Numbered from the stretch's first letter, positions 35,872 through 42,204 are shown. The stretch: DNA of 64,000 nucleotides from an uncultured bacterium (GCA_965368975.1 CBDUPA010000001.1:320001-384000), one strand, 5' to 3'. The notes: generated by a model from the sequence alone, not told the origin. Program-made: numbers and translations.

Positions 35872-35958
35872 TAGCAAGAGCCGATGGCAAGAGCCAATAG
35901 CAAGAGCCAGTAGCAAGAGCCAATAGCAGGAGCCAATAGCAGGAGCCAATAGCAGGAG
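35872..35958. repeat. About 7 x 13-bp tandem repeat
   Basis: TAGCA(A/G)GAGCCAA-type units start at 35872, 35885, 35898, 35911, 35924, 35937 and 35950. Confidence 0.9.
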
Positions 35959-35986: not shown

Positions 35987-36481
35987 TCCAAGTGCGTTCT
36001 GTACTCTTCCGAGTCCCCGAGGGGACGAATCAGGTAGGGCGGAAAGTGGTGGGTAGGTCGTGGGAAGGACCGACAGCTTCCGCACCATCGTGGTGCAGGC
36101 TCGGTGTACTACGGTGGGATGTCGTGGCGGGAGCGTTCGTCAGGGTCGACGACGCTAGCGATTGACGTGGCGGAAGAGCAGGAGACGGTACCGAAGCACC
36201 GTCACGTGGCCGGAGCCACGCACCCTGCAGGGAGCTGTCCGAACCCATAGTCACGCCGATGCCGGCACGCTTGCGATGCAAGGAAACTGCCGGGAGGTGC
36301 GCGCCGGAGGCGCTCAGGGTGTTTGGTTTCAGCTCCATGATGCAAGCAGTATACAGGTTCGTTCATGTTTTGTCCAGATTTAAGGGGGAATATCTGGACG
36401 GCCACCAGCGGGTGGTGCCCCGAGGCACCGTGGATGGGAGGAGCGAGGAAAGCGAGATATGCGAGAAAAGCGCGTAAAGTC

Positions 36482-37942
36482 TCACGGAGTTTCCTTGCTT
36501 TCCTCGCTTCCCTCGCTTTCCTCGCCGAGTCTCGACATCGCCCGCCAGCGCTCCAGCGGCCGACCGCCGGTCGGCTCCTTCGTGCGCGTCACCAAGTTGT
36601 GTTCGAGCAGCAGAGCCAGGGCGCGCCCGAGCTGCGTCTTGCTGCGGTGGCGGTGGAAGTGGTCGCCGATGTCGCCCTTGGTCAGGCCGTTCGGGTGGTC
36701 GCGCAACAAGCGCAGGATCTCGTCCGCCAGCGGCTCGCCGACGCCGTCGCCGAAAATCCAGCGCGTCGAGCTCTCGCAGTAGCGCCACAGTGCCAGCGCC
36801 GCCGTCAGGTGTACCGCGTCGACCACCGCCGAGCCGTCGAGCAGCGCATAGACACAGGCCAGGCGCATGGTCTGCGCCTCGGCGCGTCCGAGCATGGCGC
36901 CGAGCAGCCCCGGCTTGCCCGCGGACAGCTCGGGATAGACCTCGGCCCACAGTCGCCGCGCCTCGGTGCTGCGCCGCATCTCGCCCGTCTGGCGCCCGAA
37001 GTCCAGGCGCTGGTTCAGCTCGTGCTGTTCGGCGCGGAAGTCCAGCTCGTCCGTCCTGCCGCCCTCAGGCAGGCACTTCGAGCGGCGCACGCAGCACCAC
37101 AGAAAACGGTTGCCGAAGCCGTTGCCGGTCTCCACCGTTTCCAGATAGCGCAGCAGCTCGCCCTTGGTGATGTGGCCGATGATCGAAATGTGCGCGCCGG
37201 TGGCGCGGGCGGGAGAGTTCTTGGTCAGTGAACTGAGCCGGCCGTGGTCCCAGGCATTGCGGATGGTGGCGGACAGCGTGTTACCGTCGCGCTTGAGCAC
37301 GCGCAGCGTGGCGGCGAACTCTGATTCCAGCACCAGCAGCCGCTTGTCCTCGACGCCACCGTCACTCACCACGCTGCGTACTTGTCCCGTCGGCTTGCCC
37401 TTCTCGCGCACCGCCTCGGTCCGCTCGACCGGGTCGCGCACGCTCCAGATCAAGCCCTCGCCCGACGACATCCCCTGCTCGAAACGCTTCTGACTCCAGT
37501 GGGCGTCCGCGACGCGCAGCAGGCGCTTGGCCTGCCCGGCCGAGACGCCCTTGCGCCCTTTCGACGACTTGCCGACCAGGACCGCGAAGAGATTGAAGTA
37601 GTGGCGGTCGGCCTCGACGCGGAAGTGCGCGCCGTGCCCGATCGCGTTGCCGTACATGACCAGGAACTGCACCAGCACCGCCGCTGGGTCCGCTTCCGTG
37701 TGCGGCTCCAGCTTGCGCACATAGCGTCCGGCCAGTCCGTACATCGCGGCGTCGGGCAGCGTCGGCCAGGGTTGTAACTCGGGCAGCAGGAACGGCTCTC
37801 GCTGCTGTCCCCGGGGTTGGGCTCGAGGGTACTGCTGTCCTCGTTCTTGCTGGTGTCCCCGTTCTTGCTGGTGTCGCCGCGCCTGCAGTGCCGCCAGTCG
37901 CTCGACGGAACTCGAAGCTGGGCTCTTCGAAGAGGCCATCAC
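36482..37942 (-). CDS. DUF3987/YfjI-family P-loop protein (putative replicative helicase) with C-terminal wHTH
   Basis: TEADPAA, LVGKSSKGRKG, SSGEGL, ESEF, IRNAWD, HISIIGHIT, NGFGNRFL and C-terminal GGRP. Confidence 0.8.
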   Translation of the reverse strand: MMASSKSPASSSVERLAALQARRHQQERGHQQERGQQYPRAQPRGQQREPFLLPELQPWPTLPDAAMYGLAGRYVRKLEPHTEADPAAVLVQFLVMYGNAIGHGAHFRVEADRHYFNLFAVLVGKSSKGRKGVSAGQAKRLLRVADAHWSQKRFEQGMSSGEGLIWSVRDPVERTEAVREKGKPTGQVRSVVSDGGVEDKRLLVLESEFAATLRVLKRDGNTLSATIRNAWDHGRLSSLTKNSPARATGAHISIIGHITKGELLRYLETVETGNGFGNRFLWCCVRRSKCLPEGGRTDELDFRAEQHELNQRLDFGRQTGEMRRSTEARRLWAEVYPELSAGKPGLLGAMLGRAEAQTMRLACVYALLDGSAVVDAVHLTAALALWRYCESSTRWIFGDGVGEPLADEILRLLRDHPNGLTKGDIGDHFHRHRSKTQLGRALALLLEHNLVTRTKEPTGGRPLERWRAMSRLGEESEGSEESKETP

Positions 37943-38817
37943 CCACCCTCCAGCCGCCGCAGCTCGCGGCCGGCGATCGACTCGATCGTGCGCACCGTCT
38001 CTCGCTCCGGCAGCGGCGGCGTCAGTTTCACCCGTGCCCAGCAGTACGCCAGCTCCGCCGCCGTATCCGCCGGTAGACAGCGAAACAGCAGTCCTGACAC
38101 CTCCGCCAGCGTCTGATTGCGCCGTCCGCGCGGCACCGGTCGCGCCAGCGTCGCCCGCCAGTCGCGCCGCCGGTGTCCACTTTGCGGACCTCCCTGCACC
38201 TCGACCGCGCTCGTCGAATCACCGCTCGTCGAATCGCCACTCGTCGAATCACCGCGCAGCAGCTGCACGAGCCACGTCGGTGCCGGCGCGATCGCCCCGT
38301 GCGTCAACGGCACTTGCCAGCGGTAGCGCGCCCCCGACGGATGTACGCTCGGCGGCGCCAGCACGTAGCCGCCGTCAGCCCGCACGTCGAGCCCGGGCAG
38401 CAGGCCCACGCGATTGCGCGCCCCGTCCGCCAGTCGATACCAGAAGTGTGCCCCGCGCGCCGTGTGCGCCTGCGCCGTCGCCGGCAACTCGTGGTCCAGC
38501 GCCGCCAGCTGCTGCCAGACCTCCGGCGAGTCGAGATCCAAGACCAACAATCCCGGCGGAATCGCCAACCCGATGTTCGCCGTCGGCCAGCGTCGCCACC
38601 ACGCCTCCACCTCGTCCACGCGTGTGCTCGCGTCCTTCACCCCGTGCGCCGTCAAGGGCGCCTTCGCCCGCGGTCGCACCGGCAGCACCGCCCACCCCTG
38701 GCGAGCATAGGCCGCCGCCTGCGCAGCCAGCTCGTCGCGTCGAGGCGGTGTTTCCGCTGTCACCCCGCTAGCTGGCCGAGGGGGATTCCGTGATAGGTGT
38801 GCTGGCATTTGTTTCAT
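37939..38817 (-). CDS. Bifunctional DNA primase/polymerase (Prim-Pol) with PriCT-like C-terminus
   Basis: GWAVLPV...KAP, WPTANIG, LVLDLD, TARGAHFWY, DVRADGGYVLAPPSVHPSG, GRRNQTL and PPLPERE. 4-bp overlap with the DUF3987 gene. Confidence 0.9.
   Translation of the reverse strand: MKQMPAHLSRNPPRPASGVTAETPPRRDELAAQAAAYARQGWAVLPVRPRAKAPLTAHGVKDASTRVDEVEAWWRRWPTANIGLAIPPGLLVLDLDSPEVWQQLAALDHELPATAQAHTARGAHFWYRLADGARNRVGLLPGLDVRADGGYVLAPPSVHPSGARYRWQVPLTHGAIAPAPTWLVQLLRGDSTSGDSTSGDSTSAVEVQGGPQSGHRRRDWRATLARPVPRGRRNQTLAEVSGLLFRCLPADTAAELAYCWARVKLTPPLPERETVRTIESIAGRELRRLEGG
38209..38253. repeat. 3 x 15-bp in-frame repeat (GDSTS) in the Prim-Pol linker
   Basis: GCTCGTCGAATCACC-type units at 38209, 38224 and 38239. 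Confidence 0.85.
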
Positions 38818-39186
38818 TGCATGGGTCTCCAATTTTGCGTGCTCGCTGGCTGATTTCTATCTACAGCTTACATCGTAAAAGGATCTTGTGGCAATTCCTT
38901 AGTTCTCTTTCACGGAAAATTGATCGCTGATGAGCGTAGTCGGAGTATCCTGTGATGGGTTGCGGATGGGATTGCCGTGGCACTCAAGGCTGCCTTGGTG
39001 CAATTGTTTGTAGGGCGGTGTTGCCGCTCGATCCTCGAATCCCACCTCCGCGCTGTGGCACTCTCCGGACGTTCGGCCAGAGTTTCACTCTGCGCTAGAG
39101 GTGTGCGCTGCGTGCCGCGGCCGGGGTAGGGGAGCACCGCACTTGAGCGCCGCCTCGTTGCTGTACACTTTGCACAGAAGGTCGCA

Positions 39187-39414
39187 GTGCCAGCCAAAGC
39201 AACAGCAAGCCACGATTACCAGCCCCAGTTCGTCACCAACGAAGATGGCGAACGGACGGGTGTTCTCTTGTCGCTCGAAGCGTACACGGAGCTGCTCGAA
39301 GATCTGGAAGACTTGGCCGTCATCGCGGAGCGGCGGTCCGAGACGCCCGTGGCTCATGAGGAAGTGGTGGCTCGGCTGAAGGTAGATGGCCTCCTATACC
39401 GGCGGCTGCGCTGA
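39187..39414 (+). CDS. Small antitoxin-like protein (Phd/RelB-like), no adjacent canonical toxin
   Basis: QFVTNEDGERTGVLLSLEAYTELLEDLEDL...HEEV pattern typical of small type II antitoxins. Confidence 0.65.
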   Translation: MPAKATASHDYQPQFVTNEDGERTGVLLSLEAYTELLEDLEDLAVIAERRSETPVAHEEVVARLKVDGLLYRRLR

Positions 39415-39498
39415 GATCCGGCAGGCGGTGGATGCCGGCCAGTTGAAGTGCAGGGCGGCACTGTGGCATTCTCCCGATGTCTTTTCTGTGCGAATACC

Positions 39499-42204
39499 AT
39501 GTCGGATTCTTCCTCCAACGGCGAATCTCCGCCGCGCGTCTTCATCAGCTACAGCTGGGATTCCGACGCGCACAAGGAGCGGGTATTCGAGCTGGCGGAG
39601 CGCTTGCGTGATCAAGGTATCGACGCGCAGCTCGACCAGTACGAGGTAGCACCGCCGGAGAGCTGGCCGAACTGGATGTGGAACCAGGTCGAGGATGCGG
39701 ACTTCGTGCTGGTGGTGTGTACCGAGACGTACCATCGTCGCTTCCGGGGTAAGGAAGGGCCGGGGCGCGGTCAGGGCGCGACCTGGGAAGGCACGATCTT
39801 GACGCAGAGTCTTTATGACGCTGGGAGTCTCAACACCCGCTTCGTGCCGATCGTGCTGTCGGGCGAAGACACGGAGCACATCCCGCTCGTCCTGCGTGGG
39901 GCGACGCGCTACCAACTGGATCGGGACTACGAGAAGTTGTACCGGCATCTCACGGATCAGCCCGAGTTCGTCAAGCGGCCGTTGGGCCCAGTCAAACAGT
40001 TACCAGTCAAGCAGTTACCAGTCAGACAGCTACCGGTCAGGGAGCTGCAACCGGGGAACGCCGCGCCGCCACCGACGACGACCGAGCTACAGGCGGCCTA
40101 TGCCGCGAAGCGGGACGCCGTCGCCCGAGGGGACGACACGAGCGACATCGATACCCGCATCCTGCGGCTCAAGCGTGAGAGCCGAGAGGGTAGTCGTCTC
40201 GACCCTGGTGACTTCCTCGCGGCCGGACGCTACGAGTTACTGGAAGTGGTCGGCAGTGGAGGCTTCGCCAAGGTCTGGCGTGCCTACGACCATCAAGATC
40301 AGCTAGCTGTCGCCGTCAAGGTGCTGCACGGTCAGTACGTCCAGGATCGCACACGCCGCGACCGCTTCTTCCGAGGTGCCAAGCGCATGGCGGCGCTGCG
40401 CCATCCGGGGATCGTGCGCGTGCTGACCGACAGAATGGAGGAGGACGGGCACCACTTCTTCGTCATGGAGTACGTCGCGGGGGGCGACTTGCGGCGCGCC
40501 GTGCTCGCGGGGCGCATCACCGACGAGACCAGCGCCGTCGAACTGATCGTGCAGGTGAGTGATGCGCTGGCCTACGCCCACGAGCAAGGCGTGATCCACC
40601 GCGACGTCAAGCCGGCGAATATCCTCTTGGAGCCGGGTGGTGCTGCGAAGCTGACCGACTTCGACCTGGTGCGAGCCGAGGGCACCACCGGTGGCACACG
40701 CACCGGGTCCATGGGGACCTTCGTCTATGCCGCGCCCGAGCAGTTGGTCGACGCCAAGAAGGCTGGCCCGCAAGCGGATGTCTACGGCTTGGGCATGAGC
40801 CTGGTCTTTGCGCTGCATGGACAGGACCTGCCACCGACCATGATGCGCGAAGGTGAAGTCATCCTGTCGGGCATCACCTGCTCGGAAAGCGTCAAAGAAG
40901 TCGCGTCGCGGGCGATCGGTTGGCAGCCACACGAACGGTGGAAGAACGTGCGGGAGTTCGCGCGAGCCCTGCAGGCGGCGCGTAGCGGGGAGTCCGTGGT
41001 GGCCGCGAGCCAGCCAGAGCGTTCCGGCTCGACCGAGCATCGGGCCTCCATCTCACCGGCCATCGCATCGGCCGTTATCGGTCACCGGCTGGGGGACCGG
41101 CCTGGTGCGACGCTGGTGTGCATCGGCGGCCTGCACGGCAACGAACCCGCTGGGGTCATCGCCCTGGAGAGAGTTTTTCGAGCCCTCGGTGAGGCGCCAG
41201 CGGATCAGCCCACCGGAGATCTGCACGGCGAGTTCATCGGCCTGCGCGGTCATCCCGAAGCTCTCGCCGCTGGCCAGCGCTTCCTGGAAGTCGATCTGCA
41301 GCACCACTGGCAGCCCAGCCGCGTTCACGCTAGCCGCTTTGGCAAGTTGATCGACAGCCCGGTGCCCGAAGACCGTCAGCTCGACGCGTTGCGCCAGCAG
41401 TTGGAGCTGATCTTCGGCCGCGCCCGGGGGCCCGTCTTCGTGATCGACTTGCACACCACAGGTGGCCCCAGTATCCCTTTCAGCACCATTGCGGACTCGC
41501 TGCGCGATCTGGCTTTCGCGCTGTATTTCCCTGCCCCGATCCTGGCCGAGCCGGAAAGGCAGCTACGCGGCACCTTCACCGACTACGTCGGCAGCCTACG
41601 TCACGCGGCCGTCAGCATCCGGGGCGGGCAGCACGACGACCCCGCCTCTGTCGACCTCCTCGAAGCCGTGATCTGGGTCGCGCTCGAAGAGACCGGTATC
41701 CTGCCGAGCCCGGTACCCCGAGCCGAACAAGGTCGACGTCTCCTCGGCGACCTCGTTGAGGGCTTGCCGCGCATCGTCCAGGCCCGCTACCGCCACGCCG
41801 TGAGTCCGGAGGATGCCTTCGTGATGGAGCCCGGGTACACCAACTACTCGCTGGTCCAAGAGGGCCAGGTCCTGGCGCACGACAAGAACGGTCCGGTGTG
41901 CAGCCCCGCGAGCGGTGTCCTCCTGAAGCCTCTTTACCAGACACAGGGCACCGAGGGCTTTCTCGTGGGGCAAGCCTTCCGCCCCTTCTGGCTGAAGTTC
42001 TCCGCCCTGCTGCGCCGGCTTGGCCTGGACCAGATGGCTCCCTGGCTCCCCGGCGTGCGTGCGCATCCGGAGCTACCCGACTCGCTGGTGGTCGATCAAC
42101 GTCTCGCCCGCTGGTACACGGTCGAGTTCTTCTACCTCCTCGGCTACGGCTTGCACGCCGCCGAAGAGAACCAGCTGGTCTTCGCAGCTAGAAACGTCGG
42201 ATAG
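39499..42204 (+). CDS. SEFIR/TIR-like domain - Ser/Thr kinase - AstE/AspA (M14-like) fusion protein
   Basis: VFISYSWDS...ADFVLVVCTETY (SEFIR). GSGGFAKV, VAVK, HRDVKPAN, DFD and APE (kinase). GGLHGNE and DLHTT (succinylglutamate desuccinylase/aspartoacylase). Confidence 0.85.
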   Translation: MSDSSSNGESPPRVFISYSWDSDAHKERVFELAERLRDQGIDAQLDQYEVAPPESWPNWMWNQVEDADFVLVVCTETYHRRFRGKEGPGRGQGATWEGTILTQSLYDAGSLNTRFVPIVLSGEDTEHIPLVLRGATRYQLDRDYEKLYRHLTDQPEFVKRPLGPVKQLPVKQLPVRQLPVRELQPGNAAPPPTTTELQAAYAAKRDAVARGDDTSDIDTRILRLKRESREGSRLDPGDFLAAGRYELLEVVGSGGFAKVWRAYDHQDQLAVAVKVLHGQYVQDRTRRDRFFRGAKRMAALRHPGIVRVLTDRMEEDGHHFFVMEYVAGGDLRRAVLAGRITDETSAVELIVQVSDALAYAHEQGVIHRDVKPANILLEPGGAAKLTDFDLVRAEGTTGGTRTGSMGTFVYAAPEQLVDAKKAGPQADVYGLGMSLVFALHGQDLPPTMMREGEVILSGITCSESVKEVASRAIGWQPHERWKNVREFARALQAARSGESVVAASQPERSGSTEHRASISPAIASAVIGHRLGDRPGATLVCIGGLHGNEPAGVIALERVFRALGEAPADQPTGDLHGEFIGLRGHPEALAAGQRFLEVDLQHHWQPSRVHASRFGKLIDSPVPEDRQLDALRQQLELIFGRARGPVFVIDLHTTGGPSIPFSTIADSLRDLAFALYFPAPILAEPERQLRGTFTDYVGSLRHAAVSIRGGQHDDPASVDLLEAVIWVALEETGILPSPVPRAEQGRRLLGDLVEGLPRIVQARYRHAVSPEDAFVMEPGYTNYSLVQEGQVLAHDKNGPVCSPASGVLLKPLYQTQGTEGFLVGQAFRPFWLKFSALLRRLGLDQMAPWLPGVRAHPELPDSLVVDQRLARWYTVEFFYLLGYGLHAAEENQLVFAARNVG
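39988..40047. repeat. 4 x 15-bp in-frame repeat (PVKQL/PVRQL)
   Basis: CCAGTCAAACAGTTA-type units at 39988, 40003, 40018 and 40033. Confidence 0.85.

Follow-up and report, generated by a model that had tools for sequence, protein, structure and literature searches.

The way in which most bacterial defence systems perceive an infection is still an open question. Plant NLR immune receptors with integrated decoys (e.g., RRS1-WRKY) contain the copy of a host protein as a fused part, and the same source raises this model as a hypothesis for a bacterial NLR (PMC11702601); in bacteria the model has so far been mainly hypothetical (PMC11702601; PMC7159879). For the MoxR-vWA ternary systems, Kaur et al. 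(2020; PMC7159879) predicted that host enzymes in inactive copy serve as decoys, and effector-switch-FGS proteins, with NTPase-FGS and kinase/TIR-lectin systems, have been reported (Kaur et al., 2021; PMC8195603). Protection against phage is conferred by a bacterial SEFIR gene (Millman et al., bioRxiv 10.1101/2022.05.11.491447), and SEFIR is listed among the domains that cleave nicotinamide adenine dinucleotide (NAD+). Here we analyse a gene (39499-42204, plus strand) in a stretch of 64,000 nucleotides from an uncultured bacterium (GCA_965368975.1 CBDUPA010000001.1:320001-384000), referred to below as the window (G000:C1:320001-384000), which joins a SEFIR domain, a Hanks-type kinase and an inactivated copy of the cell's own AstE-like enzyme. 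We give about even odds (0.5) to the reading that its product is a single-chain integrated-decoy immune receptor, in which the bait would trigger the kinase and NAD+ depletion by SEFIR.

Architecture and origin of the fusion protein

The open reading frame (ORF) runs through 901 amino acids (aa) without an internal stop, with an alternative in-frame GTG at 39448, and the Pfam matches along it bear out the original prediction that a SEFIR domain, a repeat, a kinase and an AstE/AspA domain are joined in one chain. Its features are the following.

39499..42204, plus strand: whole ORF, 901 aa, SEFIR - hairpin - DFD kinase - inactivated AstE/AspA-like domain
39535..39951, plus strand: SEFIR domain, aa 13-151 (Pfam E 9.8e-19)
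39988..40046, plus strand: PVKQL 15-bp tandem repeat, 3.5-3.9 copies
40078..40227, plus strand: pre-kinase helical hairpin, aa ~194-243, conserved across the family
40231..40989, plus strand: Hanks-type Ser/Thr kinase (Pfam Pkinase aa 245-446, E 5.4e-41)
40375-40377, plus strand: G293 in place of the αC Glu of the kinase
40657-40665, plus strand: DFD motif of the kinase, replacing DFG
41041..42201, plus strand: captured AstE/AspA-like (M14-fold) copy of the genome's own gene
41620..41622, plus strand: R708, at the column of the putative catalytic Glu

The predicted lack of a transmembrane (TM) helix also holds, none being found in the 901-aa protein (highest 19-residue hydropathy 1.24), and G293 and R708 go beyond the first reading of the gene. 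The AstE_AspA_cat match of Pfam covers aa 535-655 (E 2.4e-7, above cut-off). G+C content at third codon positions is uniform across the domains (0.74-0.82), like that of the housekeeping neighbours, and the closest named homologues belong to Acidobacteriota/Thermoanaerobaculia. A promoter scan found nothing upstream of the fusion gene, and no RNA runs covering this stretch of the window are listed.

The N-terminal domain scores higher as SEFIR than as TIR (68.5 bits vs 52.6 for TIR_2 in Pfam) and matches PDB 5y8e (E 5e-15). D46 is kept in 100% and E97 (WEG) in 88% of 77 SEFIR domains of the family; E97 is likely to be the TIR-type catalytic Glu. The PADLOC bSEFIR match (E 1e-52, aa 7-168) extends over positions 37-197 of the 412 in the profile rather than over its full length. 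P0179, a protein from a relative, has a SEFIR domain 92% identical to that of the fusion gene over residues 1-169, but beyond the point of the PVKQL repeat its C-terminal half is of another kind (TM helix and FGE, no kinase), so that modules at this type of locus are swapped on a short timescale.

In its probable working the protein resembles both the decoy systems and the effector-switch-FGS systems, but it is not a member of either. With the MoxR-vWA-VMAP systems of Kaur et al. (2020) it has in common an inactive enzyme copy that exists beside the active form in the same cell, whereas the constant part of those systems is an operon with mostly inactive kinases; here a single chain has an N-terminal effector and keeps the kinase catalytic residues, and as it lacks MoxR and vWA and has a DFD kinase for its constant part, it falls outside them. 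The systems of Kaur et al. (2021) have the same order of effector, switch and C-terminal lectin-fold sensor and likewise occur as several paralogues per genome, but their switch is a STAND, KAP or AP NTPase instead of a DFD kinase, and the lectin is replaced here by the host-enzyme copy. The anti-phage bSEFIR gene is also a single gene with an N-terminal SEFIR, but the likeness ends with that domain, the rest being kinase and pseudo-hydrolase in our case. The plant NLRs share the fusion of an immune receptor to a host-protein copy; NB-ARC and LRR are absent here, and this is an analogy without homology. To the AstE/AspA family (ASPA, AstE, EutE, CphZ) the C-terminal domain is tied by fold and Zn ligands; it differs in being fused, in having lost the Asn/Arg pair and the putative catalytic Glu, and in coming from a subfamily marked by an additional C-terminal part and by its pairing with a GCS2-CBS gene. 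PADLOC matches to the PD-T4-6 and MAD6 defence kinases (E to 1e-58; NCBIfam MAD6 131 bits against a cut-off of 460) reflect the generic Hanks kinase fold only. No description of this architecture or of the hairpin-DFD chassis was found in the literature searched, which did not extend to the supplements of the Kaur papers that list architectures and may contain such proteins.

The donor of the hydrolase half is in the same genome. A stand-alone AstE-like gene with all motifs kept lies at G000:C1:69857-71179, behind clpS-clpA and convergent with a DUF4365-DFD kinase-FGE gene. The fused domain is 57% identical to this native gene and 37-52% identical to the copies of relatives, and it is sister to the native gene with a support of 1.00 in a 21-row tree and 99 by the SH-like approximate likelihood ratio test (SH-aLRT) in a 121-row tree. 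The kinase of the window groups with the genome's own paralogues as well (FastTree support 0.83-0.95). Because each half groups with paralogues of this genome, the two were joined within this lineage.

The captured copy has lost catalytic residues and kept its metal site. HGNE (546-549), DLH (650-652) and DLQHHW (599-604, where DLNR is typical) stand as the original prediction had placed them; the Zn ligands H546, E549 and H652 are kept, as are R594 and Y813. The substitutions are N601Q, R602H, S655G, G684E, E687R and E708R. Stand-alone relatives have Asn at 601 in 119/120 and 98/98 cases, and Arg at 602 and Glu at 708 in all 120 and all 98; N601, R602, S655, G684 and E708 are invariant in these 98 further loci. 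In the alignment to ASPA, H546/E549/H652 correspond to H21/E24/H116, R594 to R63 and N601/R602 to N70/R71, of which the last pair belongs to the catalytic site (PMC5412892). E708 probably corresponds to ASPA E178, the putative catalytic base, judging from its position in the motif, the PDB alignment having stopped short of E178. Fold and Zn ligands of an active AstE/AspA amidohydrolase are thus present, and its Asn-Arg substrate pair and putative catalytic Glu are absent. Sixteen of the 66 columns conserved in at least 95% are lost in the copy, vs 0-5 in each of 120 stand-alone proteins, and a stand-alone pair with more change elsewhere lost 1/66 (Fisher p 1e-4). N585H, once considered a diagnostic inactivating change, was dropped since it occurs in two stand-alone proteins; it is still counted among the 16.

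About 0.5 substitutions per site accumulated on the branch of the copy, all 387 codons of which stayed in frame and free of stops, and none of 2000 neutral simulations at a distance of 0.45 stayed stop-free under a crude model. Conserved columns changed less than the others (24% vs 44%, p 0.002). The ratio of nonsynonymous to synonymous substitutions (dN/dS) between copy and native gene is 0.37 at a dS of 0.89, which is near saturation, and that of orthologue pairs is 0.16-0.38. An alignment-based structure model gave a confident M14 fold (predicted local distance difference test, pLDDT, 91.9), and was used in place of a single-sequence AlphaFold model (pLDDT 34.5); Foldseek found EutE (E 3e-14), AstE and ASPA. 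The predicted complex with the native enzyme scored 0.00, which weighs neither for nor against an interaction. By these comparisons, the captured domain is a maintained pseudo-enzyme under purifying selection, with fold and metal site kept and catalytic-site residues lost. As for the native enzyme, a GCS2-CBS gene is the neighbour of the stand-alone AstE-like gene in 42/99 loci, and this genome has one elsewhere (49%); the two genes may encode a γ-glutamyl ligase/hydrolase pair. The stand-alone AstE-like genes (L002-L020 and L028-L107) form an uncharacterised subfamily with no solved member.

The fusion recurs in a related organism. Its 25.5-kb contig (runs X2 and X4) contains the end of the tricorn gene and then 39490-42182, in which the piece 40067-42182 is unbroken across the kinase/hydrolase junction with 172-173 differences in ~2115 nt (~8%); elsewhere the same relative shows 46/371 differences in the tricorn gene and 237/2129 in the purB region, and in run X1 its gene is in pieces. 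X1, X2 and X4 come from one sludge study and apparently from one organism, and four runs were compared of the five with a small share of the stretch. Since single contigs of the relative span the kinase/AstE junction, the fusion is not an assembly artefact. The PVKQL region is 33 nt shorter in the relative, from which comparison the repeat is a strain-level expansion; the "helical linker" noted along with it is the conserved hairpin of the family. After the fusion gene, the relative's contig has an opposite-strand joint (41144/42182) leading back to the HGNE region, which suggests that an inverted homologue, perhaps the native AstE-like gene, follows there.

The DFD kinase family and its captured proteins

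The kinase, whose phosphotransfer activity is putative, keeps K274, HRD (367-369), K371, N374, D387, APE (412-414), D427 and R480; the αC Glu and the Gly of DFG are replaced by G293 and D389. The predicted DFD is where it was said to be, but it is not peculiar to this gene: among the 149 best representatives it occurs in 133, with 5 DFG, 1 DLG and 10 unparsed, and the αC position is Gly in 291/292 other DFD domains, a set that is partly redundant. Hairpins were found in 131 of these 149, SEFIR in 65, FGE in 47 and M14 in none, and FGE in 95/154 sequences of a second family set; T397 is conserved in 95% and T400 in 98% of the family kinases. Judging from these alignments, the hairpin, the αC Glu-to-Gly change and DFD are the signature of a large kinase family, which is found in myxobacteria, Thermoanaerobaculia and Chromatiales among others. 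In Mnk2 the DFD motif takes up an "out" state, its Phe occupying the ATP site (PMC1821047), and by analogy with this state, given DFD and the missing αC Glu, a kinase that is off by default is plausible. The nearly invariant combination of DFD and absent αC Glu may represent an unexamined mode of Hanks kinase regulation.

Seven intact DFD kinases are encoded among the ~84 kinase ORFs of this genome, with a broken SEFIR-hairpin remnant. The other six all end in FGE (FGE-sulfatase, C-type-lectin fold), and begin with SEFIR (3), TIR (1), DUF4365 (1) or, in one case, follow a TIR in a separate upstream ORF. In relatives the N-terminal slot holds TIR, an Mrr nuclease, DUF4062, DUF4365 or EAD1, and across the family also SIR2, PNP and CHAT.

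Host proteins were captured recurrently at the other end. Pfam scans of 50/51 non-FGE representatives, and of 23/24 non-FGE locus tails with 10 other stretches, together with precomputed domains, placed in the C-terminal slot FtsZ, a tubulin-like protein, FtsI, DnaJ without its J-domain, PhoH, TssM and MFS, and also EAL, PP2C, FHA, LuxR, caspase, PNP, WD40 and TPR; CHAT, cold-shock, Clp-D2-like and HsdR-like modules are further contents, DnaA occurs as the whole ATPase with domain IV or, twice, as domain IV alone, and two copies of MglA, first spotted by eye, were borne out by alignment. As the captures are scattered over the kinase tree, they arose independently. Catalytic motifs are altered in 8 of the 12 captured enzyme domains aligned to a reference, a set made up without the Clp-D2-like, TssM and cold-shock captures, which had no reference alignment: SxxK, SxN and KSG are all changed in FtsI (vs PDB 25hr), and changes lie in the T7 loop of FtsZ, the P-loop of both MglA copies, the Walker B of PhoH, the arginine finger of DnaA, one EAL and the weakly aligned HsdR-like capture. 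ASPA apart, we take these motifs to have the catalytic roles usual for them. In 3/3 tests the genome that carries the capture also has the native gene (DnaA 51%, DnaJ 52%, MFS 63%).

Some further loci may be recorded. At G000:C12:220575-234299 (L022), three DFD kinase-FGE genes, two of them with near-identical FGE tails, lie between two large genes resembling those of nonribosomal peptide synthetases. FGE/C-type-lectin domains occur in ~26 ORFs of the genome, of which many are 1000-1250 aa long; this large repertoire of lectin sensors includes a metallophosphoesterase-NACHT-FGE protein. At L181:5868-8066 a DFD kinase-FGE is followed by an HMUDK helical domain (a Pfam family related to phage DNA hypermodification; E 4e-99), and the open frame L167:1470-5948, adjoined by a ThsB-like gene, has HsdM/N6-methylase and SMC-like parts before a SEFIR-DFD kinase.

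A host-enzyme copy as a possible bait, and other explanations

The chassis of the proposed receptor would be an N-terminal effector, the helical hairpin, the DFD kinase and a C-terminal sensor slot, usually occupied by an FGE/C-type lectin, whose place in this lineage would have been taken by a second copy of the AstE-like enzyme native to the cell. The kinase would rest off through DFD and the missing αC Glu; a protein of an invader, directed against the native enzyme or the pathway of that enzyme, would bind the bait and cluster the receptor, the clustered kinases would trans-autophosphorylate (T397, T400), the hairpin would bring the SEFIR domains together, and these would deplete NAD+ and arrest the infected cell. 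All of these steps are inferred; the architecture, the in-house origin, the lost catalytic residues, the purifying selection and the recurrent capture of host proteins are observed. The original prediction of a single-chain sensor-kinase-effector whose altered hydrolase is a decoy or sensor is still a proposal, and it is the best-supported one, strengthened by the family data. The wider idea that hairpin-DFD kinases are widespread, undescribed immune receptors that repeatedly duplicate, fuse and inactivate host proteins (FtsZ, FtsI, DnaA, DnaJ, MglA, PhoH, TssM, an AstE-like enzyme) as integrated baits is tentative, and we are inclined to doubt it somewhat. If true, it would provide a bacterial counterpart of the integrated domains of plant NLRs, the set of captured domains could be read as a list of those host proteins that come under attack from phages or predators in myxobacteria and acidobacteria, and the AstE-like/GCS2 pathway would be named as a new target. 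The present gene offers a test case with bait and active original in one genome, the receptor in one polypeptide, and a chassis that carries many baits, so that swapping the bait should swap the trigger.

Several observations weigh against the bait. PADLOC hits, several of them generic, make up 8/139 neighbours of family genes vs 3/89 controls (E 1e-20; 37/48 family and 28/28 control long loci used), which shows no clear enrichment in defence genes. A phage collection gave no AstE-like match, only generic kinases at ≤35%, and we know of no invader protein that targets such an enzyme. Four of the 12 aligned captures (EAL P0213 and three PP2C) look intact, and the slot thus also takes active modules; the captures were picked from Pfam hits, not blind, and most were compared with genes of this genome rather than of the donor. 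DnaA and DnaJ are near-universal, so that a native copy is expected anyway, and the captures are only slightly closer to the copy of their own genome (49 vs 47%, 52 vs 45%). The relative's gene is frameshifted (-2 at 39582, +1 at 39750, -1 at 41169), and hence the fusion can be lost. In the searches made, it appears restricted to its lineage, with the intact copy found only here: 8000 candidates scored from 5.8 billion clustered proteins gave, for region 515-901 among proteins of 495-1577 aa, only this protein and one frameshifted artefact; whole-protein HMMER over 1.84 billion representatives found no M14 among the best 149, where relatives more than 50% identical would hide in the cluster of this protein; and the junction region, compared with metagenomes of the Joint Genome Institute (JGI), turned up 80 loci, the best at 51%, none fused to kinase or SEFIR and one with a separate kinase ORF nearby. 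The worry that the gene might be a one-off is therefore half justified, no other intact SEFIR/kinase-AstE having been found.

A physiological sensor kinase would accommodate part of this: the pseudo-enzyme would bind a metabolite or a partner of the native enzyme (a GCS2-CBS ligase-like protein) and signal through the kinase, with SEFIR serving for assembly in a bacterium rich in kinases, as a guard of the host pathway and not a bait. The retained Zn ligands, R594 and Y813, the GCS2-CBS genes beside the native enzyme's relatives and in this genome, the FHA, PP2C, EAL, LuxR and DUF4388 signalling modules of the family, and the lack of a clear defence-island enrichment all agree with it. We nevertheless think it rather unlikely, as the carboxylate-binding Asn/Arg pair is gone and acidic pocket residues have become basic, making it improbable that the native substrate binds as before, as the N-terminal slot is filled with destructive effectors (TIR, SEFIR, Mrr, DUF4062, SIR2, PNP, CHAT), and as the distribution is patchy (0/5 genomes of the same family, with 9 candidates scored per genome, and 5/251 of the class, this one included). 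That recombination-prone kinases fused by chance to duplicated neighbours, leaving a functionless tail whose catalytic residues decay and which is selected for folding only, to keep the chain from aggregating or misfiring, would explain a singleton among so many scored candidates, the broken copy of the relative and the very mixed captures (MFS, cold-shock, TssM); a local inverted duplication would fit a DFD kinase convergent with the native astE-like gene and the opposite-strand joint of the relative. Against such a passenger stand the 387 codons free of stops and frameshifts and the smaller change at conserved columns, although truncation behind the kinase is tolerated in the family; since proteins that stop at this point are frequent, a useless tail could have been shed, and we regard this account, too, as rather unlikely. 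The captured domain might instead be an active effector of new specificity, a peptidase or amidase that the kinase would activate, a suggestion compatible with its three Zn ligands, its confident fold and the active-looking C-terminal effectors of some members (caspase, CHAT, PNP), but with Arg at the general-base column that is Glu in all 120 and 98 relatives, and with the Asn/Arg pair lost, we give it very little credence.

Genomic neighbourhood

Besides the fusion gene, the surroundings contain a Prim-Pol cassette, a tricorn protease gene, purB and an RlpA-like gene, and no linked MoxR, vWA or VMAP.

36482..38832, minus strand: Prim-Pol gene with a 486-aa partner, a separate insertion absent in the relative
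39130..39414, plus strand: RelB-like antitoxin remnant with no toxin beside it (weak match below cut-off)

The original prediction had taken the position of the fusion gene beside the Prim-Pol cassette to fit a defence cargo. This did not hold up: the relative has no cassette (joint from 36419 to 39490) and has the fusion gene in the same place behind the tricorn gene, purB being on another contig, and kinase and hydrolase group with paralogues of this genome. Because the relative has the gene without the cassette, the fusion is older than, or independent of, the Prim-Pol insertion. A second copy of Prim-Pol and partner lies at G000:C52:1284-3408 (~73% DNA identity). Short tandem expansions with units of 9-18 bp occur in and between genes at 35872-35958, 36442-36525, 37832-37879, 38208-38255 and 39988-40046, and as at least two of them are shorter in the relative, a genome-wide tendency to slippage is suggested. 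An MNT-HEPN toxin-antitoxin pair lies just upstream of the DUF4365-DFD kinase gene (G000:C1:66370-67226; L021:6370-7226), echoing the antitoxin remnant upstream of the fusion gene.

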